From contig OZ253489.1 in NCBI GenBank assembly GCA_965261965.1, forward strand, positions 3,026,281 to 3,090,280: a DNA stretch of 64,000 bases. The letters run 5' to 3'. The position numbers and the translations under genes are program-made. Below the pieces are notes generated by a model that worked only from the letters and a program-made list of their open reading frames with translations, searched no databases and had not been told where the DNA came from. Below are positions 14,825-64,000 of the stretch, piece after piece. This DNA is from Dehalococcoidia bacterium. GTDB lineage: Bacteria > Chloroflexota > Dehalococcoidia > Lucifugimonadales > JAGWBF01. Each line of letters starts with the position of its first letter. Within the stretch, counting starts at the first letter, position 1.

Positions 14825-16058
14825 CTACAGGCGGGCGTAATGAATCGATATGCGGTGTGGCTTTGGGGTTCGTATGTAGCCCAGGAACTCCTCTGCCGGA
14901 AGGGTGTTCAGGATGTGTTTGGGTTCACACCAACCGCGTCGAGCCGAAGCTACCCCGAAACGCATCTTGTCCAGGTGAGTGTGGGAATGGGAATCGGTGC
15001 TTATAACCAAGGGGACTCCCAACTGTTGTGCCCTCATGATATGTGTGTCTTTAAGGTCCAGCCGTTCGGGCGCTGAGTTGATCTCCATTGCTGTGCCCGT
15101 TTCCAGAGCTGCTTTGAATAATGCTTCCATATCGACCTCCGCGGCTTCGCGGCTGCCCAGCAACCGCCCGGTGGGATGACCGATGATGGTCACATGAGGG
15201 TTATTCATAGCTGCTATGATCCGTGCCGTCATGTGCTCCGAATCTTGCCCCAAGGATGAATGGACCGATGCAACGACGATGTCCAGCTCGGCCAACAGAT
15301 GGTCGGGATAGTCAAGGGAGCCGTCGGACCGGATGTCTACCTCAGACCCATGCAGGACTTTGATGTCCGTCCGTTCCTTCATGGAACGGAGTATGGTCAT
15401 CTGCTCCAGAAGCCTTTCATTGGAAAGGCCGTTGGCGATGCCCCGGCCCGATGAATGGTTGGTGATAGCAACGTACTGATGACCAAGGTCAGCCGCCGCA
15501 GCTATCATTTCATGAATAGGATCGCGGCCATCGCTCCATTCGGTATGTACGTGCAGGTCGCCTTTGATGTCCGATGTTTCCACAAGGGCAGGAAGCGTGC
15601 CTTCCTTGGCAAGGTCGATCTCCCGCAGCCCCTCTCGTATTTCAGGAGGGATGAAGTCCAGCCCCAGCCGCTCGTAGAAGCTGGCTTCATCAGCATACTT
15701 CTCCAAAGTGTTCTGCTGCAGGTCGGTGATACCGTATTCATTCAGAGATAGTCCCTGTTGATTCGCATAGTCCCGCAGGCGGATGTTGTGCTGTTGGCTG
15801 CCTGTAAAGTATTGAAGCATAGCTCCGAAGGATTCAGGTTCTACAACGCGCATATCGATCTGGATGCCTGGGTCCACAAACACGCTGGATTTCTTAAGGC
15901 CGTGCACCAGAACTTCCCGCACCACGGGCAAGCCTACCAAGGTATCCATAACATGGGCAGGATCGTCGGCGGTGCACATGATGTCTACGTCGCCGATGGT
16001 CTCTTTCCAGCGTCGGAGGCTGCCAACTGCCTGCATGGAGCCTATGCCAGGACATAGG
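14825..16058 (-). pseudogene. polX: DNA polymerase X, C-terminal fragment (palm/thumb + PHP domain), separated from its N-terminus by an IS
   Basis: ...GSLRRWKETIGDVDIM (PolX catalytic GSxRR/GDxD region) and the PHP motif GDLHVHTEWSDG. The frame is open upstream of the annotated Met back to the IS end at 16058/16059. Confidence 0.85.
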
Positions 16059-17652
16059 AGTTTGTCTCATAGACCGGTGGGCGGGTTGAGTAACACAGGT
16101 GTGGGAGCGATGCGCCTCAACAGAGGTTGGCCCGTCCAGTTGCACCGGCCACTTGTCGGCCCCCAGAAAGGTCGTCTACTCTCTTAGTTCCATGGCGCCT
16201 TGACCCAGTCCCAAGGCGCTTGGCCGCTGCGCCATAGCTTGAGCAAGTTATGGGTCGTCCCTGCCAGCGACCACTCACTCTGTGCAGCGCCCAACCCCCG
16301 TCTCATAAACCGTCGGAACCCCTGGCCTTCCTTGACCTGTCCGAACACCGGCTCCACCAGTACACCCCGCTTCTTGTACAGAGCTCGGCCTCGCTTTGTC
16401 AGCAGCTTGCGCTCCATCCTGTCCCTCGGGCTCAGTCCTTTTGGTATACGCCCTCGGGGACACCCCTTCTCCCATAGCAGCTTCCGCTGTTTCCAATCCT
16501 TGGTGGTGGCAATAAGAAGCTCAGGCATCTCTGGCCAGGGGCAAGCCCTGATGTTGGCCTCACTCCAGTACCCGGCATCGGCCAAGCCCGCTTTGGGCCG
16601 GTCCTCTATGCCGGCTGCTTCCAGAGTATGCGCCATGGTTTGGAGCATCGGCTCCAGTTGCTGCACATCGTTGGCCTCTTGGGTCACTCCAACGGCTACT
16701 ATGATCTGCTCCTCGCTCACCACCGCCTGGGCATTGTAGCCCTGCACGTACCCTTGCCTGGTCTTCATGATACGACTGTCCGGGTCGGTGGTATTAGCCT
16801 TCGCCCCTTCGGTAGGAAGTGGTTCTACCACCTTGGGCTTTCGCCCTCGCTTCTTTTTGCCTGTGACATCTTCTTCTGCCCGCCGTCGCTCCACGTGCTC
16901 TTGGACAGCCTTGGCTCCTGCTTCAGCCTCCCGCTGCAGACGTTCCTTGGCTTCCTTCAGGCGCTTGAGCCGCTCCGTCCGTCCCCCTAGCCCTTCCGGT
17001 AGCTCATCCCCTCGCCGGTCGGGACCATAATGGGCATCCTCTTCAGCATCCGTTGCCTTGGCCTCTGCCAACATGCGCCGCACTTCTTCTTCAATGGCCT
17101 GGTGGCTCCGGTTGGTGGCCAGGGCCGCGTTGGCTGCCACCTTCGTCCCATCAAGAGCCACTACCCCCAACTTCACCAGACCCGCTTCATGGCATAACCT
17201 CAGTACCTCTACAAAGAGCTCCTCGAACGCCTCCTCGCGCTCCGCCCTAAAGCGACAGATGGTACGGAAGTCTGGCTGCCGGTTGGCCGCCACCACCCGG
17301 AATCCTACATCTTCCTCCAGAGCACGGGCTATGCGCCTGGAACTGCGTACACCCAGGCAGTAGCCGTACAACAGGATGGCCACCATCATCCCCGGATCGT
17401 AGGCCGCTGCACCCCATCCATCACTTCGATAGACTGCATAGAACTCCCTCAGATCCATCTGGCCTACTGCATCTACAATGAACCAAGCCAAGTGACCCTC
17501 ACTCAGCCAATCCCTCATGGACGGCGGCATCAAGTAGCTCTGGTCTCGCTCGCAACTCAGAAGGTTATAAGCCATAGTGTCCTACCTGCCTGATGTTTCT
17601 ATGAGCTTACTGCTTCGCCAACCCCGCAGGAAGGGGGTTTATGGGACACGCT
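16059..17652 (-). mobile_element. IS element, IS1182/IS5-like (1594 bp), inserted in polX
   Basis: Imperfect terminal inverted repeats: AGTTTGTCTCATAGACC at 16059, and AGCGTGTCCCATAAACC as the reverse complement of 17636-17652 (13 of 18 positions match). Flanked by the 6-bp direct repeat CATAGG (16053-16058 and 17653-17658). Confidence 0.85.
16184..17575 (-). CDS. DDE transposase, IS1182/IS5-like (N-terminal DUF772-type domain)
   Basis: 463 aa. Contains LMPPSMRDWLSEGHLAWFIVDAV...AYDPGMMVAILLYGYCLGVRSSRRIA...ALDGTKVAANA...DPDSRIM...GYNAQAVV...ADAGYWSE, a pattern I recognise from IS1182-type transposases. The family name is from memory. Confidence 0.8.
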   Translation of the reverse strand: MAYNLLSCERDQSYLMPPSMRDWLSEGHLAWFIVDAVGQMDLREFYAVYRSDGWGAAAYDPGMMVAILLYGYCLGVRSSRRIARALEEDVGFRVVAANRQPDFRTICRFRAEREEAFEELFVEVLRLCHEAGLVKLGVVALDGTKVAANAALATNRSHQAIEEEVRRMLAEAKATDAEEDAHYGPDRRGDELPEGLGGRTERLKRLKEAKERLQREAEAGAKAVQEHVERRRAEEDVTGKKKRGRKPKVVEPLPTEGAKANTTDPDSRIMKTRQGYVQGYNAQAVVSEEQIIVAVGVTQEANDVQQLEPMLQTMAHTLEAAGIEDRPKAGLADAGYWSEANIRACPWPEMPELLIATTKDWKQRKLLWEKGCPRGRIPKGLSPRDRMERKLLTKRGRALYKKRGVLVEPVFGQVKEGQGFRRFMRRGLGAAQSEWSLAGTTHNLLKLWRSGQAPWDWVKAPWN

Positions 17653-18188
17653 CATAGGGACCTGAGATTCGCAATGATCTCTTCGGCCACCGGCATAGCT
17701 TGGCCCAAGGGTGTGCGCTGGTCTTTGGTCCTGTAAGATCGGATGTGGCGGAGTATGGTGTCCGCGCTTTTTTCACCCATCCGGGGCAGTGCGGCCAGCG
17801 ATCCATCCAAGGCGGCTTCTTCCACCCTTTGCAGCGTGGCGACACCCAGTTCTTTGGCGATCATCGAAGCGGTTTTGGGTCCGATGCCCGGTACGTTCAT
17901 CAGCGTGAGCACGCCGTCGGGAAGCTCGGCCTTCAGCTTTTCGAAAGCTTGCACCTCATTGGTGTCGATCAGCTCCTTGATCTTCTTGCTGATAGCATCG
18001 CCGATGCCTGGGATGGCCTTCAGGTCCATCCCGTCATCCAATGCTTGGGTCAAGGGGAAAGCAAGCTGGTCTATGGTGCGGGCTGCCCTTTGGTACGCCC
18101 GGATCTTGAATATCGCATCCCCCTTGACCTCCAGAAGGGCGGCCATATCCTCAAACATTCGGGCTATCTCTTCGTTGCTGGTGGGCAT
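17653..18188 (-). pseudogene. polX: DNA polymerase X, N-terminal fragment (8-kDa/HhH + fingers)
   Basis: MPTSNEEIARMFEDMAALLEVKGDAIFKIRAYQRAARTI... is a typical bacterial PolX N-terminus. It ends ...ANLRSL at a TGA that spans the target/IS junction (17652-17654). Confidence 0.85.
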
Positions 18189-30616: not shown

Positions 30617-30702
30617 TAGTGATGATGATAGCCCATCTCCCGCCTAGTGATGATGATAGCGTATCTCCCGACCCGTGATGATGATAGCGTATCGCTCGAC
30701 CC
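30617..30702 (+). repeat. Three tandem 28-30-bp units (TA)GTGATGATGATAGC-N-TCTCCCG-N
   Basis: Units at 30617-30644, 30645-30674 and 30675-30702. Located in the divergent region upstream of the STAS operon, next to repeat array 1. Confidence 0.8.
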
Positions 30703-30730: not shown

Positions 30731-31985
30731 ATGCAGGCGATCCTCCCCCCTGTTGTAGCCCTGAGCAGCAGTCCCCTCCCCTCCCTGCTTGTCATTCTTT
30801 ACTCTGAGGAACAGCCTTCCTCCGTTGTCATTCTGAGGAGCGCACGACGAAGAATCTAAGATGCCTGCTCACCCGAAGGACCGGCGTAGTAATGGACAGG
30901 CCATCAGGGGCAGATATTAGATTCCTCACTCCGTTCGGAATGACAGTGAGGAGCGTTCGGAATGACATGTTAATGACATGGTATTGATGTCATTCTGACG
31001 AGTGCCTTCCCTCCCTGTCATTCTGAGAAGCGCACGACGAAGAATCTAAGATGCTCCCCAGAGGGAGTCCGTCGCTCCGAAGAGTCCCCCATGTCGCCAG
31101 GATTTGAGATTCCTCACTACGTTCGGAATGACAACAAGGGGGCGCTCGGAATGACACGGAGACGTTCGGAATGGCAACGAGAATAAGAAAGGCGCGCCCC
31201 ATGACTCGGGGGGAGGCGGTCCAGGATGACAATAGGGAACGGTCATTCCGAGGAGTGCCTTCCCTTCCTGTCATTCTGAGGAGCGCACGACGAAGAATCT
31301 AAGGTGCCTGCTCACACAAAGGCTCGTCGTAGTAATGGACAGGCCATCAGGGGCAGATAGTAGATTCCTCACTCCGTTCGGAATGACAGTGGGGAGCGTT
31401 CGGAATGACAGTGGGGAGCGTTCGGAATGACAGTGGGGAGCGTTCGGAATGACATGTTAATGACATGGTATTGATGTCATTCTGACGAGCAGCCCCCCTG
31501 TCATTCTGAGGAGTGCCTCCCCTCCTGTCATTCTGAGGAATACCTCCCCTCCCTGTCATTCTGAGGAGCGCACGACGAAGAATCTAAGGTGCCGGCTCAC
31601 ACAAAGGCTGGTCGTAGTAGTGGGCAGGTCATCAGGGGCAGATATTAGATTCCTCACTCCGTTTCGGAATGACAGTGGGGGGCTGCTCGGCATGACAGTG
31701 GAGAGCTTTCGGAATGACATGTTAATGACATGGTATTGATGTCATTCTGACGAGCAGCCCCCCTGTCATTCTGAGGAGCGCACGACGAAGAATCTAAGAT
31801 GCCTGCTCACACAAAGGCTCGTCGTAGTAGTGGGCAGGCCATCAGGGGCGGACCTTAGATTCCTCACTCCGTTCGGAATGACAATGGGGGGCTCGGAATG
31901 ACAACAAGGGGGCGTTCGGAACGACAACGGGGGGTTGCTCGGCATGACGCCATATGGATTGGCTGCACCGTTTCGGCATGACAAT
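30731..31985 (+). repeat. Composite palindromic repeat array 1 (forward orientation, 5 cores)
   Basis: Boundary box ATGCAGG at 30731. Cores at 30827-30945, 31017-31133 (variant interior), 31270-31388, 31555-31674 and 31765-31883. 27-29-bp A-units (GTCATTCTGAGGAG + C-rich tail) lie 5' of each core. 22-bp B-units (CGGAATGACAGTGGGGAGCGTT) lie 3'. The junction palindrome GAATGACATGTTAATGACATGGTATTGATGTCATTC sits between modules. Confidence 0.9.
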
Positions 31986-32140
31986 TGAAAGGCCCCGGCT
32001 CGGCCACGCCGGTTCTTTGCAGTAGGGTCGATTTTTGTTATACTTCCCAAAGCTATTTTCGGGTCATAGCCCGTTCGGTAGACGGGCAAAGTACCGTGCG
32101 TTGCGAAGCTAGTAAAGATCCGTTCAGGAGCGGAGGAAGA

Positions 32141-40415: not shown

Positions 40416-40449
40416 AAAAACAGATAGCCCCGACAGGCGGGGCTATCTC
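40416..40449 (-). terminator. rpsO-pnp intergenic hairpin + U-tract (attenuator/processing site)
   Basis: Minus strand reads AGATAGCCCCG-CCTGT-CGGGGCTATCT followed by GTTTTT: an 11-bp perfect stem with a 5-nt loop. It overlaps the rpsO stop codon. Confidence 0.65.
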
Positions 40450-40706
40450 CTCAGGCCGAGACGACCAATGAGGGTACGGTAGCGGGCGACGTCTTCGCGG
40501 GACAGGTAATTCAGCAGACTCCGGCGTTGACCTACAAGCTTCAGAAGACCTATCCGGGAGTGGACGTCCTTCTTGTGCTGGCGAAGATGATCTGTGAGTT
40601 GTTTGACTCGATCCGTCAGGACCGCCACCTGAACTTCAACAGACCCTGTGTCACTGTCGTGTTGCTGAAAGTCCTCGATAATCTGGGACTTTCTTTCCTT
40701 ATCCAG
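40443..40706 (-). CDS. rpsO: 30S ribosomal protein S15, apparently initiating at CTG
   Basis: The conserved S15 N-terminus [31 protein letters not shown] is encoded upstream of the ORF-track start (40628). The in-frame TAA at about 40735-40737 leaves no ATG/GTG/TTG. CTG at 40704-40706 lies 4 nt after AGGAGG. Confidence 0.8.
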
Positions 40707-40810: not shown

Positions 40811-41922
40811 ATGCAGGGAGTCTTTCTCCCCTGTTGTAATCCTGCAGGGGTTCCTCCCCCCTGTTGTATCCCTGCGAGGGTTCCTCCCCCTGTTGTCGTA
40901 ATACGAGGGTTCCTCCCCCTTGTTGTCATCCTGCGGCCCCCCTGAATGTCATCCTGCGGGGGTTCCTCCCTTGTTGTAATCCTGCGGAGTCCCCCCTTGT
41001 TGTCGTCCTTTCGCGAAGTCCCCCTTATGGTCATTCTGAAGAGTCTCTCCTTGTTGTCATTCTGAGGAGCGCCTCCTCCCTGTCATTCTGAGGAGCGCAC
41101 GACGAAGAATCTAAGGTGCTTGGACACACGATGGGTTGCCGTAGAAATGAACCAGCCATCAGAGGGAGACCCTAGATTCCTCACTGCGTTCGGAATGACA
41201 AGTTGGCAGTCCGGAATGACAAGTTGGCAGTTTGGAATGACAGTGCGGCGGTTCAGACTGACAATGGAGGGTTCGGAACTGTAATCCTGAGGGGGGTTCC
41301 TCTCCCTGTTGTCATCCTGCGGCCCCCCTGATTGTCATCCTGGGGGGTTCTTCCCCCTTGTTGTAATCCTGCGGGGGTTCCCCCCCTGTTGTAATCCTGC
41401 GGGGGTTCCTCCCCCTGTTGTAATCCTGCGGGGGGTCCCCCCCTTGTTGTAATCCTGCGGGGTGCGTCTTATGGTCATTCTGAGGAGTCTCTCCTTGTTG
41501 TCATTGTGAGGAGCGCCTCCTCCCTGTCATTCTGAGGAGCGCACGACGAAGAATCTAAGGTGCTTGGACACACGATGGGTTGCCGTCGAAATGGACCAGC
41601 CATCGGAGGGAGACTCTAGATTCCTCACTGCGTTCGGAATGACAAGTTGGCAGTCCGGAATGACAGGTTGGCAGTCCGGAATGACAGTAGGGGGCGTTCG
41701 GGCTGACAATCGAAGTGCCAGAACTGCGTTCGGACTGGCGTGTTGGCCGTTCGGACTGACAATGGAGGGTCCGGAATGACAGGCTGGCCGTTCGGACTGG
41801 CGTGTTGGCCGTTCGGGATGACAATCCGGGTTCTGGCACTGCGTTCGGGATGACAATCCGGGTTCTGGCACTGCGTTCGGGATGATAATCCGGGTGCTGG
41901 CACCACGTTCGGGATGATAATC
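40811..41922 (+). repeat. Composite palindromic repeat array 2 (forward, 2 cores of a divergent subfamily)
   Basis: Boundary ATGCAGG at 40811. Cores at 41082-41200 and 41526-41644 have the interior GTGCTTGGACACACGATGGGTTGCCGTMGAAATGRACCAGCCATC. A-units are TGTTGTAATCCTGCGGGGGTTCCTCCCCC (~29 bp). B-units are GGAATGACAAGTTGGCAGTCC. Three ~33-bp units GTTCGGGATGACAATCCGGGTTCTGGCACTGC lie at 41810-41910. Confidence 0.9.
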
Positions 41923-43756: not shown

Positions 43757-44455
43757 ATGTACGGATGGCGGGCAGAGATCGGGTTTATCACACCTTCCAA
43801 TAACACCGTGATTGAACCGGAGCTTTATCATGTGGTCCCAGAAGGCGTTTCCTTTCATTTTACCAAGCTCATCTTTAAGTCCAGTGCGCGGGATGGTCGA
43901 ATCAAAGATGTGGACAACGAAGGGCTGGACTGCCTCGCCAGGAGCCAGGTAAATGCTATTGGCTATGCGTGTATGGCGACCAGCTTGGTTGGTTCGGACC
44001 AGTGGGAGAAGGATGCTACCGAACGCACCGGGCTTCCTGCGGTAACCGCCACAGGCGCTGTGAAAACCGCCCTGAGAGCCGTCGGAGCCAAGAACATCGC
44101 CATGGTCTGTCATTACCCTGAAGACCGGCTTGACCTGGTCGAACGTTCTTTTAACGACGATGGATTTAACGTGGTTTCCATCGAAACCGCCAGCGTGGCA
44201 GACCAGAAAGAGGTCAACCGCATACCGACGGAGACCGTCTACCGGCTATCGCGAAAAACGGACTCCAAGGACGCGGATGCTCTGTGCTTGCTAGCTACCG
44301 ACCTGAGAACATTCCCGATCCTTCAACAGCTGGAAGATGACCTGGGCAAGCCGGTGGTCGGGACCAATCAAGCGCTACTGTGGAGGACGTTGCAGCTGGC
44401 TGACCTGGATGTAAAGATCGAAGGGTACGGGTCGCTGCTCTCGGGAGAGATGTAA
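43757..44455 (+). CDS. Asp/Glu/hydantoin-racemase-superfamily protein (maleate isomerase/arylmalonate decarboxylase-like)
   Basis: MYGWRAEIGFITPSNNTVIEPELY... is the typical N-terminus of the maleate cis-trans isomerase family. ATG 43757 lies 6 nt after GGAGG. Confidence 0.7.
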   Translation: MYGWRAEIGFITPSNNTVIEPELYHVVPEGVSFHFTKLIFKSSARDGRIKDVDNEGLDCLARSQVNAIGYACMATSLVGSDQWEKDATERTGLPAVTATGAVKTALRAVGAKNIAMVCHYPEDRLDLVERSFNDDGFNVVSIETASVADQKEVNRIPTETVYRLSRKTDSKDADALCLLATDLRTFPILQQLEDDLGKPVVGTNQALLWRTLQLADLDVKIEGYGSLLSGEM

Positions 44456-44676
44456 GACCTGATTAAGCGACGGACGGCGGAGGCTTCAAGAATCCAGATC
44501 GGTTGATGCTCGCGGGGAAACCGACGCCTTCTTCGTGCAGGCTTAGGTCAGGATTTAGGTTCACTAATCCGAAGTTTGCATCCTACACGTAGCCCTCGGC
44601 GACGTCCACTCCTTGTTGTCTATACGCCGCTGACCGTTGTCGGCAACCCTCCAGTGCAACCCCGTAGTCAACCAGG

Positions 44677-45501
44677 TCAAGCTTTGTTCTCCTCGCCCTC
44701 GGGATTGAATGGTTGGTCGGTCACCCGGATCAGGGCGCTGAAGGGTACACCGTCAAAATTGAGCCATTCTCCCCAACATGCCTGATCTACAACACCAAGG
44801 CCATGGCACTGCAAAACACCTTCCCACGACGCTTCAGATGGGAACACAGGCCCGTAAGCGGCCATATCCTGAGCGTTCAAGAATCCAAGATAGAGCAGAA
44901 CGACAGGTATGCCAAGAGAGACCAGCTTCCACGACCATGCAAACCGGTTGGATAACTGGTAGTGGTGGTCCCGGGATATATTCCAACGCTTTCCTGTCAC
45001 TCGCCGGAACTGGGTTGCGGCCTCGCCAATCGCCAATCCAATCCGTTCGTGGTTCTTGATGCTGTTAGCAGACGCATCCGACTTGAGTAGTTTCCCATCG
45101 TTCTTTAACTCGTTTGAATGCGCCTTTGCTTCAATGAGAAGAAGCCCCTGCTTGCCCATTATGGTGCAGGTGCTGGCGATGTCCCAGTTCGGAGTATTCG
45201 CCGCATTTCCTCTACCGGGGACTGCGAGCCACCACTCCTTAAGTTGCAACTGTAGCTGACGACTCACGAGGTCATTTGACTTGTCCAGTTCAACCTCCCG
45301 CGCGGGTCTCAAGTCCCATGAGTCATTTCTGCGCACGGGCTTTCCGTATGGCATCCAACGGTCGCGCTGAGAAACGACTAAATCTGGGAGATTCACCATG
45401 CGCGTCAGACGGCTGGCAACCTCTTCTCGATTACCTTCCATCGTCAGAACGCAACGTGGTTGGCTACCTCGCTGTTTTTTAAGCTGTTTGTACCAACTCA
45501 T
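44677..45501 (-). CDS. Hypothetical protein with a PD-(D/E)xK nuclease-like motif
   Basis: 274 aa. NWDIASTCTIMGKQGLLLIEAKAH matches the D...(hydrophobic strand)-E-x-K core of restriction-endonuclease-fold proteins. No partner gene and no family recognised. Confidence 0.5.
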   Translation of the reverse strand: MSWYKQLKKQRGSQPRCVLTMEGNREEVASRLTRMVNLPDLVVSQRDRWMPYGKPVRRNDSWDLRPAREVELDKSNDLVSRQLQLQLKEWWLAVPGRGNAANTPNWDIASTCTIMGKQGLLLIEAKAHSNELKNDGKLLKSDASANSIKNHERIGLAIGEAATQFRRVTGKRWNISRDHHYQLSNRFAWSWKLVSLGIPVVLLYLGFLNAQDMAAYGPVFPSEASWEGVLQCHGLGVVDQACWGEWLNFDGVPFSALIRVTDQPFNPEGEENKA

Positions 45502-45532
45502 CCGGCCCCTGCATTTGTTCGGTTCAGTTGTT

Positions 45533-46519
45533 CTAGAAGTCGAATTCCGTTCCCATTCCTCGTTCTTTGGCTAGCTGGTATACCTTGCCAGCGCAGGCTA
45601 TATCTTCGATAGCAATTCCGTTGAACTTGAACAGGGTGATCTCTTGGTCTGATTCCCTGCCGGGGACTTTTTCGGCAACCACATCAGCCATCTCGGCGTA
45701 GATATCCGCCTTATTATAAGTGCCTTGGGATATCGGTATCACCAGATCTCCGGCTTCCTTGAGGGCTTGGTCCATAAACTCCACAACCACCTTGCTCTTG
45801 TGCAGGGTTGCTTCATCCACCTCGCGCATATCGGGTATGCTGGAGCCGACCACGCTCAGGTGCATTCCCTCTTCGATGTGGTCTCCCGAAAAGACCGGAT
45901 TCCGGGCGTTGGTGACCGTAACCACGATATCGGCGCCGCCTAGCGCTCCTTCTGTTGTCTCGGCTGCTATTACCTCAGCATCCACCAAGGGTCTGAGGGT
46001 TGCGGCAAAGCTCTGGCGATGTTCTGGTGTGGGGCTGTAGATGCTGATCTCTTGTATGGGGCTCACCGCACAAACGCCTACAGCCTGCATCGCCGCGTAC
46101 TTGGATGAGCCAAAGAGAGCTAATCTTGTGCACTCCTTGCGGGCTAGGTGCTTGATCCCAACGGCGGTAACCGCTCCGGTGCGTATCCGGCTGAGGTCCT
46201 CCCCTTGCACCATAGCCAACATATCGCCGGTCGCGGAGTCAAAGAGCAGAATTATGAACCGTGCTCGCCTTGGGGGGGTGGTGCCGGGAGAAGCTGCCAC
46301 CAAGATCTTGGCCCCCATGATACCCAGTTGGTGAATGGTGCCCGGCATGAGCCATCGGAGATAGGAATGGCCTGGGCCTTGAGGTGGGTCTGTGGCGATC
46401 CGGGGGGGCATGCTGGCCCCTCCCAAAGCTAGCTGCCGGAAGGCTTCCTCCACCACATCGATGGCATCTTCCATGGCGAGCAGGTTAGAAACATCATTAT
46501 CGGTGATCAGTAGAGCCAT
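45533..46519 (-). CDS. Ornithine cyclodeaminase/mu-crystallin family protein
   Basis: 328 aa. MALLITDNDVSNLLAMEDAIDVVEEAFRQLALGGASMPPRI plus a Rossmann region. Confidence 0.85.
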   Translation of the reverse strand: MALLITDNDVSNLLAMEDAIDVVEEAFRQLALGGASMPPRIATDPPQGPGHSYLRWLMPGTIHQLGIMGAKILVAASPGTTPPRRARFIILLFDSATGDMLAMVQGEDLSRIRTGAVTAVGIKHLARKECTRLALFGSSKYAAMQAVGVCAVSPIQEISIYSPTPEHRQSFAATLRPLVDAEVIAAETTEGALGGADIVVTVTNARNPVFSGDHIEEGMHLSVVGSSIPDMREVDEATLHKSKVVVEFMDQALKEAGDLVIPISQGTYNKADIYAEMADVVAEKVPGRESDQEITLFKFNGIAIEDIACAGKVYQLAKERGMGTEFDF

Positions 46520-51105: not shown

Positions 51106-51130
51106 CTGCATCGTCGCACCGCCCTCAACA

Positions 51131-52410
51131 GCAGATCTTAGATTCCTCACTGCGCTCGGAATGACAGGTGGGCACTCGGAATGACAGGTGGGCGCTCGGA
51201 ACGACAGGTGGGCGTTCGGAATGACAGGTGGGCGCTCGGAATGACAGGTGGGCGCTCGGAACGACAGGTGGGCGTTCGGAATGACAGGTGGGCGCTCGGA
51301 ACGACAGGTGGGCGCTCGGAACGACAGGGGGGCGCTCGGAATGACAGGTGGGCGCTCGGAACGACAGATGGGCGCTCGGAATGACAGATGGGCGCTCGGA
51401 ATGACACTCACTCCCTGTCATTCTGAGGAGCCTTCCCCTTACTGTCATTCTGAGGAGCGCACGACGAAGAATCTAAGATGCCCGGCTCACACAAAGGCTC
51501 GTCGTAGTAATGGACAGGCCATCAGTGGCAGACCTTAGATTCCTCACTCCGTTCGGAATGACAGCGGGGACCGTTCGGAATGACAGCGGGGACCGTTCAG
51601 AATGACAGCGGCGGGCGTCTTGAATAACACTCCGTCATTGTCATTCTGAGGAGCGCCTTCCCTTACTGTCATTCTGGGGAGTGCTTCCCCTCTCTGTCAT
51701 TCTGAGGAGTGCTTCCCCTCCCTGTCATTCTGAGGAGCGCACGACGAAGAATCTAAGATGCCCGCTCACACAAAGGCTCGTCGTAGCAATGGACAGGCCA
51801 TCAGTGGCAGACCTTAGATTCCTCACTCCGTTCGGAATGACAGCGAGGACCGTTCGGAATGACAGCGGGGAGCGTCTTGAATAACACTCCGTCATTGTCA
51901 TTCTGAGGAGTGCCTTCCCTTACTGTCATTCTGAGGAGCGCCTCCCCTTCCTGTCATTCTGAGGAGCGCACGACGAAGAATCTAAGATGCCCGCTCACAC
52001 AAAGGCTCGTCGTAGCAATCAACCAGCCATCAGGGGCAGACCTTAGATTCCTCACTCCGTTCGGAATGACAGCGGGGACCGTTCGGGATGACAGCGGGGA
52101 CCGTCTTGAATAACACTCCGTCATTGTCATTCTGAGGAGCGCCTTCCCTTACTGTCATTCTGAGGAGTGCTTCCCCTCCCTGTCATTCTGAGGAGCGCAC
52201 GACGAAAAATCTAAGATGCCCGCTCATACAAAGGCTCGTCGTAGCAATGAACCAGCCATCAGGGGCAGACCTTAGATTCCTCACTCCGTTCGGAATGACA
52301 GCAGGGGAGTGCGGAATGACAGTAGGAGAGTTCGGAATGACATGTTGGGTGTTGTTCGGAATGACGCTAGGGGATAGGCTCGGGATTACAAGTTGGGGAA
52401 CTGTGCGCTG
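51131..52410 (+). repeat. Composite palindromic repeat array 3 (forward; half-core + 20-bp satellite + 4 cores)
   Basis: A half-core (3' arm only) at 51131-51166 starts 26 nt after the smpB stop. Thirteen GGAAYGACA boxes follow at an exact 20-bp period (51158-51406). Cores at 51444-51563, 51724-51842, 51952-52070 and 52182-52300. The junction type differs from array 1 (CGTCTTGAATAACACTCCGTCATTGTCATTC). Confidence 0.9.
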
Positions 52411-53848
52411 GTAACAGTTCAGAGTTGAGGGGAAAGTAGTAGGTCACGGCATTCCAAGAGGGGGTTGAGGCCCTTGGCGCGCCATGTCCCAAAGAGGGAT
52501 GCCAGGGTCATTTTGGTGTCGCTGCCCTGTTTGGAGCGAGTGCCGCCGCTAATCTTACGGCTGATCACCAGGTGCCGCAGGCTTCGTTCGGCGGCGTTGT
52601 TCTCCGACGGCGCGTTTGGGTGGGACACGAAGACGAACAGCTCCTTGATGAACCGTTCTATGCGCCGGCAGAGCTTGGACTGGGGCGCGGCTTGGTCCTT
52701 GAAGAAGGGGCTGCACAGCGCCAGCAGTTCCTTCTCCAAGGTCAACTGGCGTCGCGAGGCCAGCCGGGGGCCATCGGCAGGAACGCAAGTCCTGGCCTTG
52801 GCATATACCCGCCGCACCGCACCGGCCCACTGTGCCAAGCCGAGGTCATCAGGATACCAAGCCATGAGCTCATCCATATCCCGCAGCAGGTGTGCCCAAC
52901 ACCGCTGCTTCAGGCCGGGGTAGTGGTTATATGCGGCGTAGAAGTCACTCACCAGCACTCCGCTGAATGCCTCTCCCAACGCCTCGTCCACCACCCCCTT
53001 GCCACGACCGCGACGCAGGAAGTACCGCTCCGTGGGAGTGCTGAAGGTCCAAACGTAGCCGTTGACTCCATCCTCACGCCAGCCGGTCTCATCTGCATGC
53101 ACCACCGGAGAGCCACGAATGCGTTCCAGGGTCTCGGCCACTGCCATCCGGGCCTGTCGTGCCACACTATGAATCGTCTCCACGATGGCGCCCACGCTCA
53201 GCTTCAACCGATGCACCGTCTGAAGGTACTGCTGGATGCTCCTTATGGGCAGCCGTCCCTCCTCCCGCAGCGTCACTATCAGGCTCGCAAGGTTGATACC
53301 AAGGCGCCGAGGCCCCACTGCCAATCCCTGCAACGCACCACGGGGCACCCGCCGTTTCCGGCATAGCCCACACATTCGAGCCATGAAGACGTGCTCGACC
53401 ACCTCCGCCGGAACCAACGGAAGCTCGATGACCTCACGAGTCCGCTGTACCCATCCCCCTGCCAGGCCCGTCCCACACTCGGGGCACGACTCCAGAGCAT
53501 GCACCACCTGCCGCGTGGGTTCCATTCGCTGCCGGGCAAAGCCGTGGAGACGACGCTTCCTCGATCCCTTTCTCTCCGGCTGACTCCCCTTGGCGCGCGG
53601 CTTATTGCCCGGCATCCCTGCAGACGGGCCGCCAGTACCCGGACGGGCCTCCAACTCCTTCACCCGTCGCTCCAGCTCGGCGATGATCGTCTGCTGCTTG
53701 GCAATAACCTCCAGCAGGGTCTCCCGGCTCGTGGTGCGAAGGTCCACTTCATTGTCCACCCCTCTCGTTTAACACAATCAAACGCCCCTTGCTCCGTACT
53801 CTCCACCCAGGTTCCGAGCAATTCACCTCTCCAACTCTGAACAGTTAC
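52411..53848 (-). mobile_element. IS66-family insertion sequence, single-ORF type (1438 bp)
   Basis: Terminal inverted repeats: GTAACAGTTCAGAGTTGAGG at 52411, and GTAACTGTTCAGAGTTGGAG as the reverse complement of 53829-53848. They start with GTAA, as in IS66-family ends. No flanking direct repeat found. Confidence 0.8.
52419..53759 (-). CDS. IS66-family DDE transposase
   Basis: 446 aa. N-terminal leucine zipper (IIAELERRVKELE), zinc finger CPECG...CGLC, HADETGW, CWAHLLRD, NNAAERSLRHLVISRKISGG. Confidence 0.85.
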   Translation of the reverse strand: MDNEVDLRTTSRETLLEVIAKQQTIIAELERRVKELEARPGTGGPSAGMPGNKPRAKGSQPERKGSRKRRLHGFARQRMEPTRQVVHALESCPECGTGLAGGWVQRTREVIELPLVPAEVVEHVFMARMCGLCRKRRVPRGALQGLAVGPRRLGINLASLIVTLREEGRLPIRSIQQYLQTVHRLKLSVGAIVETIHSVARQARMAVAETLERIRGSPVVHADETGWREDGVNGYVWTFSTPTERYFLRRGRGKGVVDEALGEAFSGVLVSDFYAAYNHYPGLKQRCWAHLLRDMDELMAWYPDDLGLAQWAGAVRRVYAKARTCVPADGPRLASRRQLTLEKELLALCSPFFKDQAAPQSKLCRRIERFIKELFVFVSHPNAPSENNAAERSLRHLVISRKISGGTRSKQGSDTKMTLASLFGTWRAKGLNPLLECRDLLLSPQL

Positions 53849-54264: not shown

Positions 54265-54395
54265 ATCTACTCCAAGTGGCATCCTGACCCGGCGAGCCTG
54301 TATGTAACACCGTTATCCTACGTCTTCGTCTCAAGGCTGTATTCTCACCTCCGCCCCAATCTCTCAACGAATTAGCCAACATCCGCAATTCCTAA

Positions 54396-56175
54396 CACTC
54401 CCCACTGTCATTCCGAAACGGAGTGAGGAATCTAAGGTCTGCCCCGATGGCCTGTCCATTACTACGACGAGCCTTTGTATGAGCGGGCATCTTAGATTCT
54501 TCGTCGTGCGCTCCTCAGAATGACAATGGGGAGGAAGCGCTCCTCAGAATGACAATGGGGAGGAAGTGCTCCTCGGAATGACAATGGGGAGGAAGCGCTC
54601 CTCGGAATGACAATGACGGAGGGTCACTCCGAGCGCGCGCCACCGTCATTCCGAAACGCCCCAGCTGTCATTCCGAGTGCTCCCCACTGTCATTCCGAAA
54701 CGGAGTGAGGAATCTAAGGTCTGCCCCGATGGCCTGTCCATTACTACGACGAGCCTTTGTATGAGCGGGCATCTTAGATTCTTCGTCGTGCGCTCCTCAG
54801 AATGACAATGGGGAGGAAACGCTCCTCGGAATGACAATGACGGAGGGTCACTCCGAGCGCTCCCCACCGTCATTCCGAAACACCCCAGCTGTCATTCCGA
54901 ACGCTCCCCACTGTCATTCCGAACCCTCCCCACTGTCATTCGGAACCCTCCCCACTGTCATTCCGAAACGGAGTGAGGAACCTAAGGTCTGCCCCGATGG
55001 CCTGTCCATTACTACGACGAGCCTTTGTATGAGCGGGCATCTTAGATTCTTCGTCGTGCGCTCCTCAGAATGACAATGGGGAGGAAACGCTCCTCGGAAT
55101 GACAATGAGGGAGGGTCATTCCGAACGCCCCCCACTGTCATTCCGAACGCTCCCCACTGTCATTCCGAAACACCCCAGCTGTCATTCCGAAACACCCCAG
55201 CTGTCATTCCGAACGCTCCCCGCTGTCATTCCGAAACGGAGTGAGGAATCTAAGGTCTGCCCCGATGGCCTGTCCATTACTACGACGAGCCTTTGTATGA
55301 GCGGGCATCTTAGATTCTTCGTCGTGCGCTCCTCAGAATGACAATGGGGAGGAAGCGCTCCTCGGAATGACAATGACGGAGGGTCACTCCGAGTGCTCCC
55401 CACTGTCATTCCGAAACACCCCGGCTGTCATTCCGAGTGCTCCCCACTGTCATTCCGAACCCTCCCCACTGTCATTCGGAACCCTCCCAACTGTCATTCC
55501 GAACGCTCCCCACTGTCATTCCGAAACGGAGTGAGGAATCTAAGGTCTGCCCCGATGGCCTGTCCATTACTACGACGAGCCTTCGAATGAGCCGGTATCT
55601 TAGATTCTTCGGCGTGCGCGCCTCAGAATGACAGTAAGGAGGAAGTGCTCCTCAGAATGACAGTAAGGAGGAAGTGCTCCTCAGAATGACAATGACAATG
55701 ACGGAGGGTCATTCCAAACTCCCGCCGCTGTCATTCCGAACGCCCTCCAATGTCATTCCGAGCGCCCCCCACTGTCATTCCGAAACGGAGTGAGGAATCT
55801 AAAATCTCCCTCTGATGGCCTGTCCATTACTACGACGAGCCTTTGTGTGAGCAGGCATCTTAGATTCTTCGTCGTGCGCTCCTCAGAATGACAATGACGG
55901 AGTGTGATTCCAGACGCCCGCTGCTGTCATTCCGAACCCTCCCCACTGTCATTCCGGGTTCCCTCACTGTCGTTCCAGACGGAGTGAGGAATCTAAGGTC
56001 TGCCCCTGATGTCTGGTTCATTACTATGACGAGCCTTTGTGTGAGCAGGCATCTTAGATTCTTCGTCGTGCGCTCCTCAGAATGACGGGGAGGGGAGGAG
56101 GCGCTCCTCGGAATGGCGGTGAGGGAGTTCCCGGCGCTTTGGCCAAGCTCAGGGTAATTGCTTTTACCTGCAATC
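54396..56175 (-). repeat. Composite palindromic repeat array 4 (reverse orientation, 7 cores)
   Basis: Cores (reverse complement of the array 1/3 core) at 54407-54524, 54689-54806, 54957-55074, 55225-55342, 55515-55632, 55774-55892 and 55969-56086. 22-bp units CTGTCATTCCGAACGCTCCCCA lie on the left of each core and 29-bp units GCTCCTCAGAATGACAATGGGGAGGAAGC on the right. The boundary box is at 56167-56174 (CCTGCAAT, reverse complement ATTGCAGG). Confidence 0.9.
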
Positions 56176-56181
56176 AACTTT

Positions 56182-56265
56182 GTGGTAAGTTGGACACCTG
56201 TGAGCGAAGTAACTCTTCTTACGGTGGTAAGTTGGACACCTGTGAGCGAAGCAACTCTTCTTACG
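56182..56265 (+). repeat. Two tandem 42-bp units immediately upstream of the RBS of the BNR-repeat gene
   Basis: GTGGTAAGTTGGACACCTGTGAGCGAAGTAACTCTTCTTACG at 56182-56223, repeated at 56224-56265 with one T/C difference. AAAGGGGG RBS and ATG 56282 follow. Confidence 0.85.
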
Positions 56266-63070: not shown

Positions 63071-63216
63071 AGTCTGTCCGAGAAACAATGTTCTAAACGA
63101 TATGCGTCATTAGTGGAGTGTAAAGATGCTAATTACTCCACGACAAAGTCCAGATTGCTGTAAGCAGGTTATTGCGTGGCGTTTTTCGTCTCCAGAAACG
63201 AATCCTCGGACAGGCT
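63071..63216 (+). mobile_element. 146-bp MITE related to the IS at 16059-17652
   Basis: Termini are AGTCTGTCCGAGAAAC at 63071 and AGCCTGTCCGAGGATT as the reverse complement of 63201-63216. They match the IS termini consensus AG..TGTC..A. Flanked by CCTAGG (63065-63070) and CCTAGC (63217-63222). No ORF. Internal hairpin GTGGAGT-N15-ACTCCAC. Confidence 0.7.
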
Positions 63217-63221
63217 CCTAG

Positions 63222-64000
63222 CGTCATTCTGCGAGCGCCCTCCCCCTCCTGTCGTCATCGCGAGCACCCTCCCCCCTTATTGTCTTTGTGAGTATCCCTC
63301 CTTCTGTCGCCATCGTAAGGAGCCCTCCCATTGTCGTCATTGTGAGGAGCGCATCCCCTCCCTGTCATTCTGAGGAGCGCACGACGAAGAATCTAAGGTG
63401 CCGGCTCACACAAAGGCTCGTCGTAGTAATGGACAGGCGATCAGGGGGCAGACCTTAGATTCCTCACTCCGTTCGGAATGACAGTGGGGAGGGTTCGGAA
63501 TGACAGTGGCGGAGTTCGGAATGACAGCGACGGGCGTCTGGAATGACACTCCTTCATTGTCATACTGAGTAGCGCTTCCGCCTCCTGTCATTCTGAGGAG
63601 CGCACGACGAAGAATCTAAGGTGCCGGCTCACACAAAGGCTCGTCGTAGTAACGGGCAGGCCATCGGAGGGAGACCTTAGATTCCTCACTGCGGTTCGGA
63701 ATGACAGTGAGAGGGTTCGGAATGACAGCGGGGAGCGTTCGGAATGACAGTGGGGAGCATTCGGAATGACAGTGGGGAGGGTTCGGAATGACAGCGGGGA
63801 GCGTTCGGAATGACAGTGGGGAGCGTTCGGAATGACAGTCTCTCATTGTCGTTCTGAGGAGCGCTTCCCCTTCCTGTCATTCTGAGGAGCGCACGACGAA
63901 GAATCTAAGGTGCCGGCTCACACAAAGGCTCGTCGTAGCAATGAACCAGCCATCAGGGGCAGACCTTAGATTCCTCACTTCGGTTCGGAATGACAGCGGG
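63222..64000 (+). repeat. Composite palindromic repeat array 5 (forward, at least 3 cores; runs off the window)
   Basis: Boundary box ATGCAGG at 63048 is separated from the array by the MITE. A gradient of degenerate A-units spans 63222-63363. Cores at 63364-63483, 63587-63706 and 63875-63994. Confidence 0.9.

Follow-up and report, generated by a model that had tools for sequence, protein, structure and literature searches.

Intergenic arrays of an inverted-arm repeat with a REP- and NIME-like layout in a Chloroflexota lineage

The closest described counterparts of the repeat considered here are the CGTC/TGTC-tagged REPs, a superfamily defined by Di Nocera, De Gregorio & Rocco (2013, BMC Genomics 14:522; PMC3733652). 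In the parts of that paper drawn on here, a CGTC-REP has an unpaired terminal CGTC, or TGTC/CCTC, a stem of 8-9 bp, a loop of 4-5 and a tail approximating CCA; the stems start with AT, the elements form head-to-head dimers with spacers of 20-100 bp, and no transposase is known for them. The dRS3/NIME arrays of Neisseria belong to the same superfamily (PMC1797815): 20-bp dRS3 inverted repeats (ATTCCC-N8-GGGAAT) flank RS elements of ~50-150 bp, the arrays hold syntenic positions with varying numbers of repeats, and arrays of this type were reported as unobserved outside Neisseria (Bentley et al. 2007; PMC1797815). REPINs, finally, consist of two inverted REP-like hairpins and a less conserved spacer, together forming a long hairpin of ~100 nt (Bertels & Rainey 2011; PMC3116915).

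The window analyzed here, a stretch of 64,000 nt from a Chloroflexota genome, holds 21 cores in five intergenic arrays that total 6,238 bp, or 9.7% of its length (Table 1); the original prediction, which had counted 21 cores in five arrays over about 10% of the window, is borne out in this respect. The window has 21 matches to CGACGAAGAATCTAAG (at most 2 mismatches), where 0.01 would be expected: five at 30.8-31.9 kb, two at 41.1-41.6 kb and four at 51.4-52.3 kb, all on the + strand; seven at 54.4-56.1 kb on the - strand; and three at 63.4-64.0 kb on the + strand, where the window's end cuts the array. For GTCATTCTGAGGAG (at most 1 mismatch) the count is 49, with 0.04 expected, and all 113 GTCATYCYGA sites of the window lie within the five arrays.

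Dissected unit by unit, the arrays resolve into cores (117-120 nt) with a-units (24-31 nt) always on their 5' side and b-units (20-23 nt) always on their 3' side; this order holds in 16 arrays with 76 modules, counted over the window and loci from one sister assembly (ERZ25072821). The description of the family as modular, polar and palindromic is upheld. The core is a pair of inverted arms, tags outward, around a spacer of ~58 nt (82 of 82 full cores), and its two ends are identical when read from the outside in (TGTCATTCYGA...GARGAATC), in the manner of terminal inverted repeats. The a- and b-units are copies of the outer half of an arm (TGTCATTCYGA...) followed by a linker of 10-14 nt, C-rich in a-units and G-rich in b-units. 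Tandem Repeats Finder (TRF) reports higher-order periods of 194-289 bp.

Table 1. Repeat arrays, their cores and an adjoining insertion, in window coordinates
Feature	Position	Strand	Composition or basis
Array 1	30740..31983	+	5 modules (a^n-core-b^m)
Core 1.1	30827..30945	+	nhmmer, 129 bits
Core 1.2	31017..31133	+	nhmmer, 87 bits; alignment
Core 1.3	31270..31388	+	nhmmer; RNA fold -41.8 kcal/mol, z -3.25
Core 1.4	31555..31674	+	nhmmer
Core 1.5	31765..31883	+	nhmmer
Array 2	40828..41922	+	2 modules plus degenerate a-like and b-like units
Core 2.1	41082..41200	+	locus-specific center variant
Core 2.2	41526..41644	+	nhmmer
Array 3	51121..52405	+	truncated core 3' end, 12 b-units, then 4 modules
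Core 3.1	51444..51563	+	nhmmer
Core 3.2	51724..51842	+	nhmmer
Core 3.3	51953..52071	+	nhmmer
Core 3.4	52182..52300	+	nhmmer
IS66-family insertion	52405..53848	-	transposase ORF 52419-53759; not part of the repeat family
Array 4	54384..56147	-	7 modules
Core 4.7 (last in the array's own orientation)	54406..54524	-	nhmmer
Core 4.6	54688..54806	-	nhmmer
Core 4.5	54956..55074	-	nhmmer
Core 4.4	55224..55342	-	nhmmer
Core 4.3	55514..55632	-	nhmmer; compensated 5'-arm inner stem GGCG/CGCC
Core 4.2	55773..55892	-	nhmmer
Core 4.1	55968..56086	-	nhmmer
Array 5	63215..64000	+	degenerate a-like units, then 3 modules; extends past the window's end
Core 5.1	63364..63483	+	nhmmer
Core 5.2	63587..63706	+	nhmmer
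Core 5.3	63876..63995	+	nhmmer

The coordinates agree with the reported placement of arrays between genes beside purA, rpsO, smpB and ssrA. Array 1 has a STAS-domain gene (-) on one side and purA (+, 32141) on the other, the promoter-like site of purA (32016-32044) lying downstream of the array. Array 2 is situated between the promoter of rpsO (40443-40628) and the 3' end of an ABM-domain gene, antisense to both; its degenerate units are a-like, of 26-30 bp (TGTAATCCTGCGGGGGTTCCTCCCCC), and b-like, of 21 and 32 bp. Array 3 starts 16 nt 3' of the stop codon of smpB (50650-51105) with the truncated core end (51121-51167), continues with its 12 b-units of 20 bp each ahead of the modules, and is terminated by the IS66-family insertion. 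Array 4 is flanked by ssrA (+, 53912-54264) and a BNR-repeat gene (+), again antisense to both.

Only the two arms of the core are conserved; the center is not. Divergence between arrays is 1.6% in the 5' arm and 5.0% in the 3' arm, as against 28.9% in the 58-nt center, so that the long conserved core first described does not survive closer inspection. The arms take up ~30 nt each, the hairpin-forming site itself ~21-26 nt; their form is TGTC, then ATTCY-GA-(inner stem)-loop-(inner stem)-GA-RGAAT, then C. A T precedes GTC at 105 of the 113 window sites.

The arrays might be taken for sets of structured noncoding RNA genes, each core specifying an RNA of ~119 nt. The + strand of the core folds well in comparison with shuffled sequence (z -3.25, none of 200 shuffles being as good; - strand, z -2.44), and RNAs often contain tandem G.A pairs. 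RNAalifold, however, places pairs in the arms only and finds no compensatory pair among 73 distinct cores; a mutual-information scan of every column pair detects no Watson-Crick covariation in the core center, which is without consensus structure; and one core (31017-31133) retains its arms around a center swapped for unrelated sequence. The two-fold symmetry of the ends yields one G.A hairpin per strand, which fits DNA ends and not an RNA, and no conserved promoter was found. Searched against Rfam, the whole window gives tmRNA only at the gathering threshold, and array 1 at E <= 10 gives only chance microRNA and snoRNA matches, far below gathering scores. We consider RNA genes an improbable account of the cores. 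A hammerhead-like reading of CUGAGGAG...GAAG was also rejected: no Rfam ribozyme matches at E <= 10, and the helices do not fit.

The best reading is that the functional unit is the arm, not the long core. At least 120 IMG/VR contigs carry a shorter, generic form of the arm, in which the compensatory changes are perfect. Among 143 generic arms collected from IMG/VR by a pattern open to all Y/R combinations, positions Y6-R22 are T-A in 92, C-G in 50, T-G in one and C-A in none (Fisher p ~1e-38), and positions Y8-R20 are T-A in 115 and C-G in 28 (Fisher p ~1e-30); the base before GTC is T in 126 of the 143 and C in 13. In the window's own family, the 5' arm has an inner stem of GGAG/CGAC in 75 copies (a tandem G.A), GGGG/CCCC in eight, GGCG/CGCC in six and an intermediate form in two. 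The arm stem starts A-T then T-A and makes five Watson-Crick pairs before a conserved tandem G.A; with G.A counted, the generic arm has nine pairs and the window 5' arm 11. The latter is 26 nt long, with two G.A steps and a 4-nt CGCA loop; generic arms and the window 3' arm have a loop of 3 nt (GNA). The tail is C-TA or C-TC. By this covariation the arm is truly a hairpin or a palindrome, and a palindromic double-stranded binding site would covary equally well; nearest-neighbor energy models predict no stable hairpin for the isolated arm.

Several features ascribed to whole modules fare less well. That each module forms one long hairpin finds no sign of constraint: the numbers of a- and b-units are uncorrelated across modules (rho 0.04), and a competing hairpin, in which b-units pair across the junction with the a-units of the module that follows, folds no worse (z -7.9 versus -4.5 for the one-module hairpin). 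Since n and m do not correlate, nested insertion was also rejected as the source of the a^n-core-b^m layout. The junction palindrome (TGTTAATGACATGGTATTGAT) is specific to array 1, where it occurs three times; junctions in the other arrays are of 10 or 32 nt. The proposed boundary box, WTGCAGG, occurs at 29 sites against 23.7 expected, which is chance, or else it belongs to a neighboring promoter: near rpsO (array 2) it fits the -35 of a candidate promoter TTGCAG-N17-TATAAT, and near purA (array 1) that of a candidate TTTGCA-N17-TATACT. An origin of the b-units from a tmRNA or tRNA 3' end (an att site) was also discarded, as the ssrA 3' end is unrelated. The observation itself is confirmed; the interpretation first placed upon it is partly supported.

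Repeats are hard to assemble, and it might be supposed that the arrays are collapsed or chimeric products of assembly; one short-read scaffold (L007) does stop within b-units just 3' of smpB. But at least four assemblies of the same species, made independently from separate ENA samples, place arrays at the same syntenic positions with the same locus-specific spacer variants; the center variant of core 2.1, for example, is common to the orthologous arrays of L003 and L004. As these assemblies share array sites and differ in copy number, the arrays are not artefacts, and the worry raised at the outset can be laid to rest as scarcely credible. The comparison of array lengths between strains that had been suggested shows that copy numbers indeed differ: at the same loci, strain L003, whose unique flanks are 98.4% identical, has three cores where the window has four, six where it has seven, and eight b-units where it has 12. 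Arrays have also been amplified locally. Core-to-core distance is 0.078 within arrays and 0.157 between them (none of 1000 permutations fell below 0.139), and 55 of 78 cores have their nearest neighbor within their own array.

This strain-to-strain turnover goes with restriction to one lineage. Copies with the long core are limited to a single clade of species rank (at least 96% nucleotide identity). In three more distant relatives, with PNPase identities of 82%, 78% and 71%, the 22-kb loci that match the pnp-purA stretch of the window by synteny (in the closest relative, smpB as well) hold no copies. A search of a 5.8-billion-protein database with the core translated on both strands gave 18 matches at E <= 1, which trace without exception to ten ENA contigs and the 3.43-Mb contig of the window itself; four of the ten are tied to the two sister assemblies. 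The spread looks like a recent, lineage-restricted burst in one species. Farther afield, an exact 24-mer scan reached one genome contig (L001, an Acidobacteriota MAG) and one metagenome contig (L002), each with a single short hairpin, and half-arm sub-repeats with different linkers recur in the unrelated contigs L010, L139, L029 and L054.

A quite different perspective supposes that the arrays are kept by selection for the host's benefit, as BIME-like sites that bind a nucleoid or topology protein, or that act in transcripts as stabilizers, terminators or RNase targets. Some placements are suggestive, in that the arrays spare promoters and terminators: array 2 lies between the T-rich terminator-like sequence just past the ABM-domain gene and the -35/-10 of rpsO, array 1 is upstream of the purA promoter, and isolated 3' arms stand directly 3' of genes and of a tRNA in other contigs. 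The G-U wobble pairs of the arm-arm helix favor the + strand, and the a-unit arrays create promoter-like sites, ATGACA-N17/18-CAGAAT, on the opposite strand. Yet the orientation of arrays is independent of flanking gene direction (sense and antisense, upstream and downstream are all seen), copy number changes even between the 98.4% identical strains, and the syntenic loci of the three relatives are without copies; moreover, there is no U-tract, and the arms are therefore not intrinsic terminators. Maintenance for such a role seems rather unlikely, if less so than RNA genes.

The reading we favor, by a modest balance of probability, is that of a lineage-specific, greatly expanded repeat of the REP/REPIN/NIME kind, acting at the DNA level and not as RNA genes. 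For its spread we infer an enzyme and a seeding step: a candidate trans-acting DNA enzyme, encoded outside the window, would recognize the arm and seed a copy in a neutral intergenic site; this might be a HUH transposase of the RAYT/TIRYT type or, along the lines suggested for dRS3, a site-specific recombinase. The array would then grow and shrink by unequal recombination and replication slippage between direct repeats. Only copies with intact arms would stay substrates, and for this reason the arms would be near-invariant while the spacers drift.

No Y1/HUH transposase, RAYT included, was detected in the window or in the called genes of ~180 kb of related loci. The earlier statement that the window has no dedicated enzyme thus holds for RAYT, and needs qualification in that the window does encode transposases of the IS66 family and of an IS5/IS1182-like type, both unrelated to the repeat. 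The near-identical strain L003 lacks the IS66-family insertion, whose terminal repeats (GTAACAGTTCAGAGTTG...) show no relation to the arms; on this last ground it was dismissed as parent or mobilizer. IS630 was dismissed likewise, its terminal repeats having been read and found unrelated, and IS110 because its copy in L004 has no repeat motif beside it. For the IS5/IS1182-like transposase (16184-17575) the link was judged from sites and not from element ends: no GTCATYCYGA site relates it to the repeat, since none lies in the window outside the arrays. Among proteins encoded within 1.5 kb of arms at 120 viral loci, no enriched family was recognized as a transposase; the largest clusters, judged by eye, look like ordinary phage proteins or wrong-frame translations.

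The arrays could, on the other hand, be satellite-like DNA without any dedicated enzyme, spread by ectopic or illegitimate recombination, or uptake of foreign DNA, together with slippage, the arms being kept alike by gene conversion. Concerted evolution within arrays is strong, a- and b-unit counts are independent as slippage predicts, no enzyme was found in the window, and neither a clean pair of filled and empty sites nor a target-site duplication was seen at the loci compared. Gene conversion, though, should even out the spacers too, and these differ by 29% between arrays, as against 1.6-5% for the arms. The repeat occupies at least 20 separate loci in ~260 kb, a count that includes orthologous arrays of different strains; and the same arm type, with compensatory changes, appears across unrelated viral and bacterial contigs, which points to a sequence-specific function of the arm. 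Enzyme-free spread is a minority view, unlikely but the weightiest of the alternatives to the REP/REPIN/NIME-kind repeat.

A bolder extension of the favored reading would make the hairpin TGTC-ATYCY-GA...GA-RGRAT the recognition site of a widespread DNA enzyme that mobilizes CGTC-type REPs; a- and b-units would then be footprints of its mechanism, left by repeated one-ended or abortive cleavage and joining. This is offered tentatively, and is on the whole doubtful. Were it true, it would supply the long-missing mobilizing activity for CGTC-type REPs, with the Chloroflexota species as a natural system. The link to the widespread short hairpin, with its perfect covariation, conserved tandem G.A and lack of an Rfam match, has interest of its own, as does a NIME-like system in a phylum distant from Neisseria. 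The species-restricted burst, with no copies at the syntenic loci of three relatives, lends itself to a hunt for the enzyme by genome comparison. A density of ~10% could explain part of the difference in genome size between this species (3.43 Mb) and the closest of the three distant relatives (2.61 Mb). The arrays also break short-read assemblies, and they generate many spurious "MT..." ORFs: all 14 protein matches whose sequence was inspected start with MT.

How, then, does the repeat compare with what has been described? It is not a CRISPR array, as the arms are inverted and not direct, the "spacers" are ~71% identical, and the window has no cas genes. Terminal inverted repeats are present as in MITEs; of the other two marks of a MITE, a target-site duplication and a related autonomous IS, neither was seen, for no direct duplication flanks cores or arrays, the flanks being inverted C-rich and G-rich units, and the IS elements were dismissed above. 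FB foldback transposons are eukaryotic and much larger, some copies having coding sequence; the resemblance, in variable numbers of short sub-repeats inverted at unequal ends around a center, is one of analogy only. In BOX elements an internal boxB multiplies between a single boxA and a single boxC, and in BIMEs two types of REP (Y and Z, of the GTAG type) alternate with defined linker motifs. The likeness to BOX or BIMEs noted at first stands for the class of phenomena, that is, mosaic, modular intergenic repeats of palindromic units with variable numbers of sub-modules; as a specific analogue BOX is poor, since in the present repeat it is the terminal half-arm units that multiply, around one internal core. 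With REPINs the repeat shares a noncoding, intergenic, inverted hairpin doublet, sometimes in tandem clusters; it differs in that its arms start with TGTC and lack the GTAG tag that defines REPs of that system, the sole GTAG lying within the variable spacer (CGTCGTAG) and not being invariant, and in that the sequence examined (window and ~180 kb of related loci) has no RAYT gene.

That the repeat could not be matched to a named family remains true of Rfam; full-text literature searches for the arm sequences, and for the spurious peptide CHSERSEES, likewise gave nothing relevant, and the supplements of PMC3733652 contain no matching sequences. By layout, nevertheless, it can be placed with the CGTC/TGTC REP superfamily and NIME, its stem, loop and tail agreeing in part with the former. 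As far as the parts of that superfamily's description drawn on here extend, the common features are the TGTC tag, the stem that begins A-T then T-A, a short hairpin with compensatory stem variants, head-to-head dimers with tags outside and a variable spacer (~58 nt, within 20-100 bp), and clustered intergenic copies without a known dedicated transposase. Against the same parts of the description, the stem has a conserved tandem G.A/A.G in place of 8-9 uninterrupted pairs; the 5' arm of the window is longer (26 nt), with its two G.A steps and CGCA loop; the generic loop is of 3 nt and not 4-5, and the tail CT(A/C) and not CCA; and arrays of half-arm sub-repeats are not among the features set out.

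From NIME the repeat differs in belonging to Chloroflexota and not Neisseria, in having one spacer family and not >100 RS families, in its longer arms with G.A pairs, in the a- and b-sub-repeats that give its modules polarity, and in that no phage or recombinase of the kind targeting dRS3 has been identified for it. The exact sequence and length of dRS3 are unmatched by the window arms, and the architecture alone matches; the window lacks GTCATTCCCGCNNNNGCGGGAA, a 22-nt version with the dRS3 motif, which turned up solely in a second, nested repeat known only from the related loci L004-L006 and L014. The likeness lies in the layout: inverted repeats of the ATTCC...GGAAT type flank a variable segment, here of 58 nt, and are chained in long intergenic arrays; other mobile elements insert opportunistically, here the IS66-family element and the nested repeat (L004-L006, L014); and the arrays keep syntenic positions with a repeat number that varies by strain, between the window and L003 and L004-L006.

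The repeat arrays are a real and striking feature of the window. The 16-mer CGACGAAGAATCTAAG occurs 21 times with at most two mismatches, against 0.01 expected, and the head motif GTCATTCTGAGGAG 49 times with at most one, against 0.04; these counts, far above expectation, bear out the 21 cores in five arrays of the original prediction. The five blocks hold 113 of the 113 GTCATYCYGA sites and together make up 6,238 bp, or 9.7% of the window, much as first estimated (about 10%). Dissection of the arrays, by cutting at every head and tail motif and classifying the pieces, likewise upholds the modular, polar grammar: cores of 117-120 nt are preceded by 0-9 a-units (24-31 nt, the head motif plus a C-rich tail) and followed by 0-12 or more b-units (20-23 nt, a G-rich head plus CGTTCGGAATGACA). 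Tandem Repeats Finder reports the short periods together with a higher order of repetition at 194-289 bp. The arrays are indeed strictly intergenic, beside purA, rpsO, smpB and ssrA, and the ORFs that overlap them are translated repeat sequence. On the opposite strand of an a-unit series the periodicity gives promoter-like sites, ATGACA-N17/18-CAGAAT, and every b-unit contains GGAG-N8-ATG, a Shine-Dalgarno-like site with a start codon; hence the many spurious 'MT...' ORFs called in the arrays.

Coordinates of repeat features and neighbouring elements (window positions unless a fetched locus, L number, is given)
Feature	Location	Strand	Remarks
Array 1 cores	30.8-31.9 kb	+	5 cores
Array 2 cores	41.1-41.6 kb	+	2 cores
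Array 3 cores	51.4-52.3 kb	+	4 cores
Array 4 cores	54.4-56.1 kb	-	7 cores
Array 5 cores	63.4-64.0 kb	+	3 cores; array cut by window end
Promoter-like sites	30992-31021, 31503-31531, 31530-31559	-	a-unit periodicity
Second repeat	L004/L005/L006 4100-4900; L014 16900-17700		inserted in cores
Second repeat's REP motif	L012, L013, L014 11551		single copies
28-bp units	30619-30702		three in tandem
42-bp units	56182-56265		two in tandem
IS5/IS1182-like transposase	16184-17575	-	DUF772 + DDE_Tnp_1
Family-X polymerase halves	14825-16036, 17652-18188		separate ORFs
IS66-family element	52405-53848	-	transposase 446 aa
Amdase-OCD/mu-crystallin slot	window 44455-45533; L003 3805-4882; L004 4111-4882		hypervariable
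Gene cluster 3' of smpB	L004 12156-19127		recombinase and transposase genes

Immediately 5' of array 1 stand 28-bp units, GTGATGATGATAGCGTATCTCCCGACCC, unrelated in sequence to the a- and b-units; Rfam gives them only weak, chance-level C/D-box snoRNA-like matches at E <= 10. The 42-bp units, GTGGTAAGTTGGACACCTGTGAGCGAAGCAACTCTTCTTACG, at the 5' edge of array 4 and directly upstream of the start of a BNR-repeat gene (56282), could be a regulatory duplication in the leader of that gene.

The proposed joints between modules do not survive as general features. The boundary box WTGCAGG is found 29 times in the window, where 23.7 are expected; beside rpsO it fits the -35 hexamer of a candidate promoter, TTGCAG-N17-TATAAT, and beside purA that of another, TTTGCA-N17-TATACT. 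The candidate rpsO promoter is kept in relatives without the repeat. The junction palindrome is present in array 1, whereas the other arrays lack it on dissection. Nor is the module 'one hairpin' by design, since the count of a-units does not track that of b-units (Spearman 0.04 within modules, 0.19 across junctions) and the hairpin formed across a junction by b-units, junction and a-units (z -7.9) is at least as favourable as that within a module (z -4.5).

Conservation of the ~119-bp core likewise holds only in part: in alignment A1, of 73 distinct cores, the arms (positions 1-33 and 92-119) are nearly invariant, whereas the centre is variable. Between-array divergence is 1.6% in the 5' arm, 5.0% in the 3' arm and 28.9% in the centre, and the core at 31017-31133 keeps its arms around an unrelated centre. 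RNAalifold pairs the arms alone and reports zero compensatory pairs; a mutual-information scan of all column pairs found no Watson-Crick covariation in the centre.

Read from outside in, each on its own strand, the ends have the form TGTC-ATTCY-GA-...-GA-RGAAT-C. Reverse-complemented, the 3' arm is ATTCC-GA-AC-GGA-GT-GA-GGAAT, a hairpin of five pairs, tandem G.A/A.G, two pairs and a loop of 3 nt. In the 5' arm this form is extended to ATTCT-GA-G-GA-G-CGCA-C-GA-C-GA-AGAAT. The inner stem of the 5' arm reads GGAG/CGAC in 75 copies, GGGG/CCCC in eight and GGCG/CGCC in six, with two half-changed intermediates: by this count of variants, compensatory change. A shorter generic arm, GTCATYCYGAGCGNAGCGARGRATC, occurs in at least 120 IMG/VR contigs; the search pattern permitted all Y/R combinations, and among the matches listed the variable stem pairs are Watson-Crick in 142/143 and 143/143, with zero C-A. 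On the evidence of covariation, the arm is a hairpin or a palindromic protein site. The isolated arm is not scored stable by nearest-neighbour energy models, which give tandem G.A pairs no credit.

The window-type 3' arm appears in 12 viral contigs, partnered with generic 5' arms; in L139 it is followed by b-like tandem units of its own. Half-arm units resembling a or b, with other linkers, are found at L010, L029, L036, L038 and L054; the sub-repeat habit is therefore a wider family trait, not that of this genome alone. Environmental contigs, viral and bacterial, carry the generic 25-nt arm, TGTCATYCYGAGCGNAGCGARGRATC, very widely (L018-L137 from IMG/VR, L001 from an Acidobacteriota MAG, and L002), and their composition runs from visibly AT-rich (L041) to GC-rich (L065). 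The arm stands singly or in inverted pairs, often adjoining gene ends or a tRNA. No name for it was found in Rfam or the searchable literature; the G.A-containing hairpin is widespread beyond this genome and apparently unnamed.

Strains could be compared through independent ENA assemblies of this species. Unique flanks of the sister assembly ERZ25072821 (L003, L011-L014) are 98.4% identical to the window; ERZ25069191, ERZ25071132 and ERZ25068966 (L004-L006) are 96.2% identical. Searching ~260 kb of window and loci with an HMM of the 21 window cores yields 82 full-length cores, which fall into 20 arrays. Orthologous arrays lie at the same sites with different sizes: 3' of smpB the window has four cores and 12 leading b-units, L003 three and eight; 3' of ssrA there are seven cores in the window versus six in L003; beside rpsO the counts are two, three and one across the compared assemblies. 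An assembly artefact, one outcome that the original prediction named as able to overturn it, is for practical purposes ruled out by this agreement of site and difference in copy number among independent assemblies, which also demonstrates rapid turnover.

Two cores from one array resemble each other twice as closely as two from different arrays (distances 0.078 and 0.157; 0/1000 permutations fell below 0.139). Spacer variants are locus-specific, with the same variant in the orthologous array of other strains (A1), from which we infer that every locus goes back to a single seeding, followed by amplification in situ.

In more distant relatives (L015-L017), with PNPase 82%, 78% and 71% identical, 22 kb of syntenic sequence holds zero copies; gene order at L015 is nearly that of the window, and L016 and L017 share the pnp-purA part only. 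The best named PNPase relatives, ~60% identical, are Chloroflexota and SAR202 MAGs. Because gene callers routinely predict ORFs in these repeats, a protein database was searched for the core: translations of both strands, against 5.8 billion predicted proteins at E <= 1, gave 18 hits only, and all of them come from ten ENA contigs (four tied to the two sister assemblies) and the 3.43-Mb contig of the window itself. Judged by these matches and by absence from the relatives' syntenic loci, the long-core family is a recent expansion within one species-level clade.

A second repeat of ~125 nt, with ends TCTGAACAA...TTATTCAGA, holds a canonical CGTC REP, CGTCATTCCCGCGAATGCGGGAAC, and sits inside some cores directly after CTAAGGTGCC; judged by its REP motif, it is absent from the window. 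AAGGTGCC is repeated just past the insert in one copy, and in the form GGTGCC in a further two, a hint of target duplication over some 6-8 nt. The IS5/IS1182-like transposase gene lies between the halves of a family-X DNA polymerase gene (an HHH_8/HHH_5 N-terminal part; a thumb + PHP C-terminal part), and polX appears to have been split by this insertion; at L016 a 587-aa gene with family-X polymerase domains begins directly after secA (first 130 nt read), at the position of the split halves. The IS66-family element, with terminal repeats GTAACAGTTCAGAGTTG..., has inserted where array 3 ends on its 3' side, shortly before ssrA, and is absent from L003. The slot between Amdase-family and OCD/mu-crystallin genes contains a 274-aa ORF without Pfam match in the window, a 278-aa REase-ARP gene on the other strand in L003, and a repeat array in L004-L006. 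The L004 cluster combines the gene of a large serine recombinase (Resolvase + Recombinase) with transposase genes of the IS3, IS110 and rve types, and has the look of an island integrated at smpB/ssrA. Genes called in L004 do not include the BNR-repeat and TPP-enzyme genes found after ssrA in the window.

The observations favour a DNA-level element. Its ends are symmetric, with one G.A-type hairpin per strand, always at its own 5' side, as terminal inverted repeats recognised by one protein would show. The arrays keep no consistent orientation to the genes beside them, the cores showed no conserved promoter, and an Rfam search of window and array gave no match to the repeat, in agreement with the first reading. 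Symmetric ends, inconsistent orientation, and the lack of promoter, spacer structure and Rfam match together point to DNA; that the cores are ncRNA genes is improbable. Array placement leaves promoters and terminators intact. A site selected by the host, in the manner of BIMEs, is somewhat less improbable, though still doubtful.

The family has conserved hairpin arms around a neutral spacer, amplifies locally, changes copy number fast and has spread recently in a restricted lineage. We lean towards a trans-mobilised REP/NIME-like element, locally amplified: an arm-recognising enzyme acting in trans would seed new loci; unequal recombination and slippage would follow; copies with intact arms alone would stay substrates, and this would account for arms that diverge 6- to 18-fold more slowly. 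The main gap of this model is the enzyme, for which no candidate was found in the window or ~180 kb of related loci; as originally noted, the window has no dedicated enzyme, its only transposases being the IS66-family and IS5/IS1182-like ones, both unrelated to the repeat. Satellite DNA that needs no enzyme is the less likely, if tenable, account.

Among known families, the repeat stands closest to the REPs, of which two superfamilies are described, GTAG-tagged and CGTC-tagged (PMC3733652, Di Nocera et al.). CGTC REPs often carry TGTC as the tag, have stems that begin with A-T pairs, occur mostly as head-to-head dimers with tags outside and spacers of 20-100 bp, and have no known transposase; they include dRS3 of Neisseria, ATTCCC-N8-GGGAAT (PMC3733652). 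With RS segments, dRS3 builds NIME arrays, syntenic in position and variable in repeat number, reported as not observed outside Neisseria (PMC1797815). A REPIN is rejected, as the GTAG tag is lacking, and a MITE, as neither target-site duplication nor parental IS was found; the BOX-like layout first suggested fails the BOX grammar. Compared by published description, the family has in common with these REPs and arrays its tag, AT start, head-to-head layout, variable spacer, array habit and strain-to-strain dynamics; it differs in the conserved tandem G.A of the stem, in details of loop and tail, in the longer 5' arm and in half-arm sub-repeats with polarity. The most fitting label is that of REP/NIME-like arrays, CGTC/TGTC in type, from Chloroflexota, with unusual half-arm sub-repeats and a G.A hairpin.
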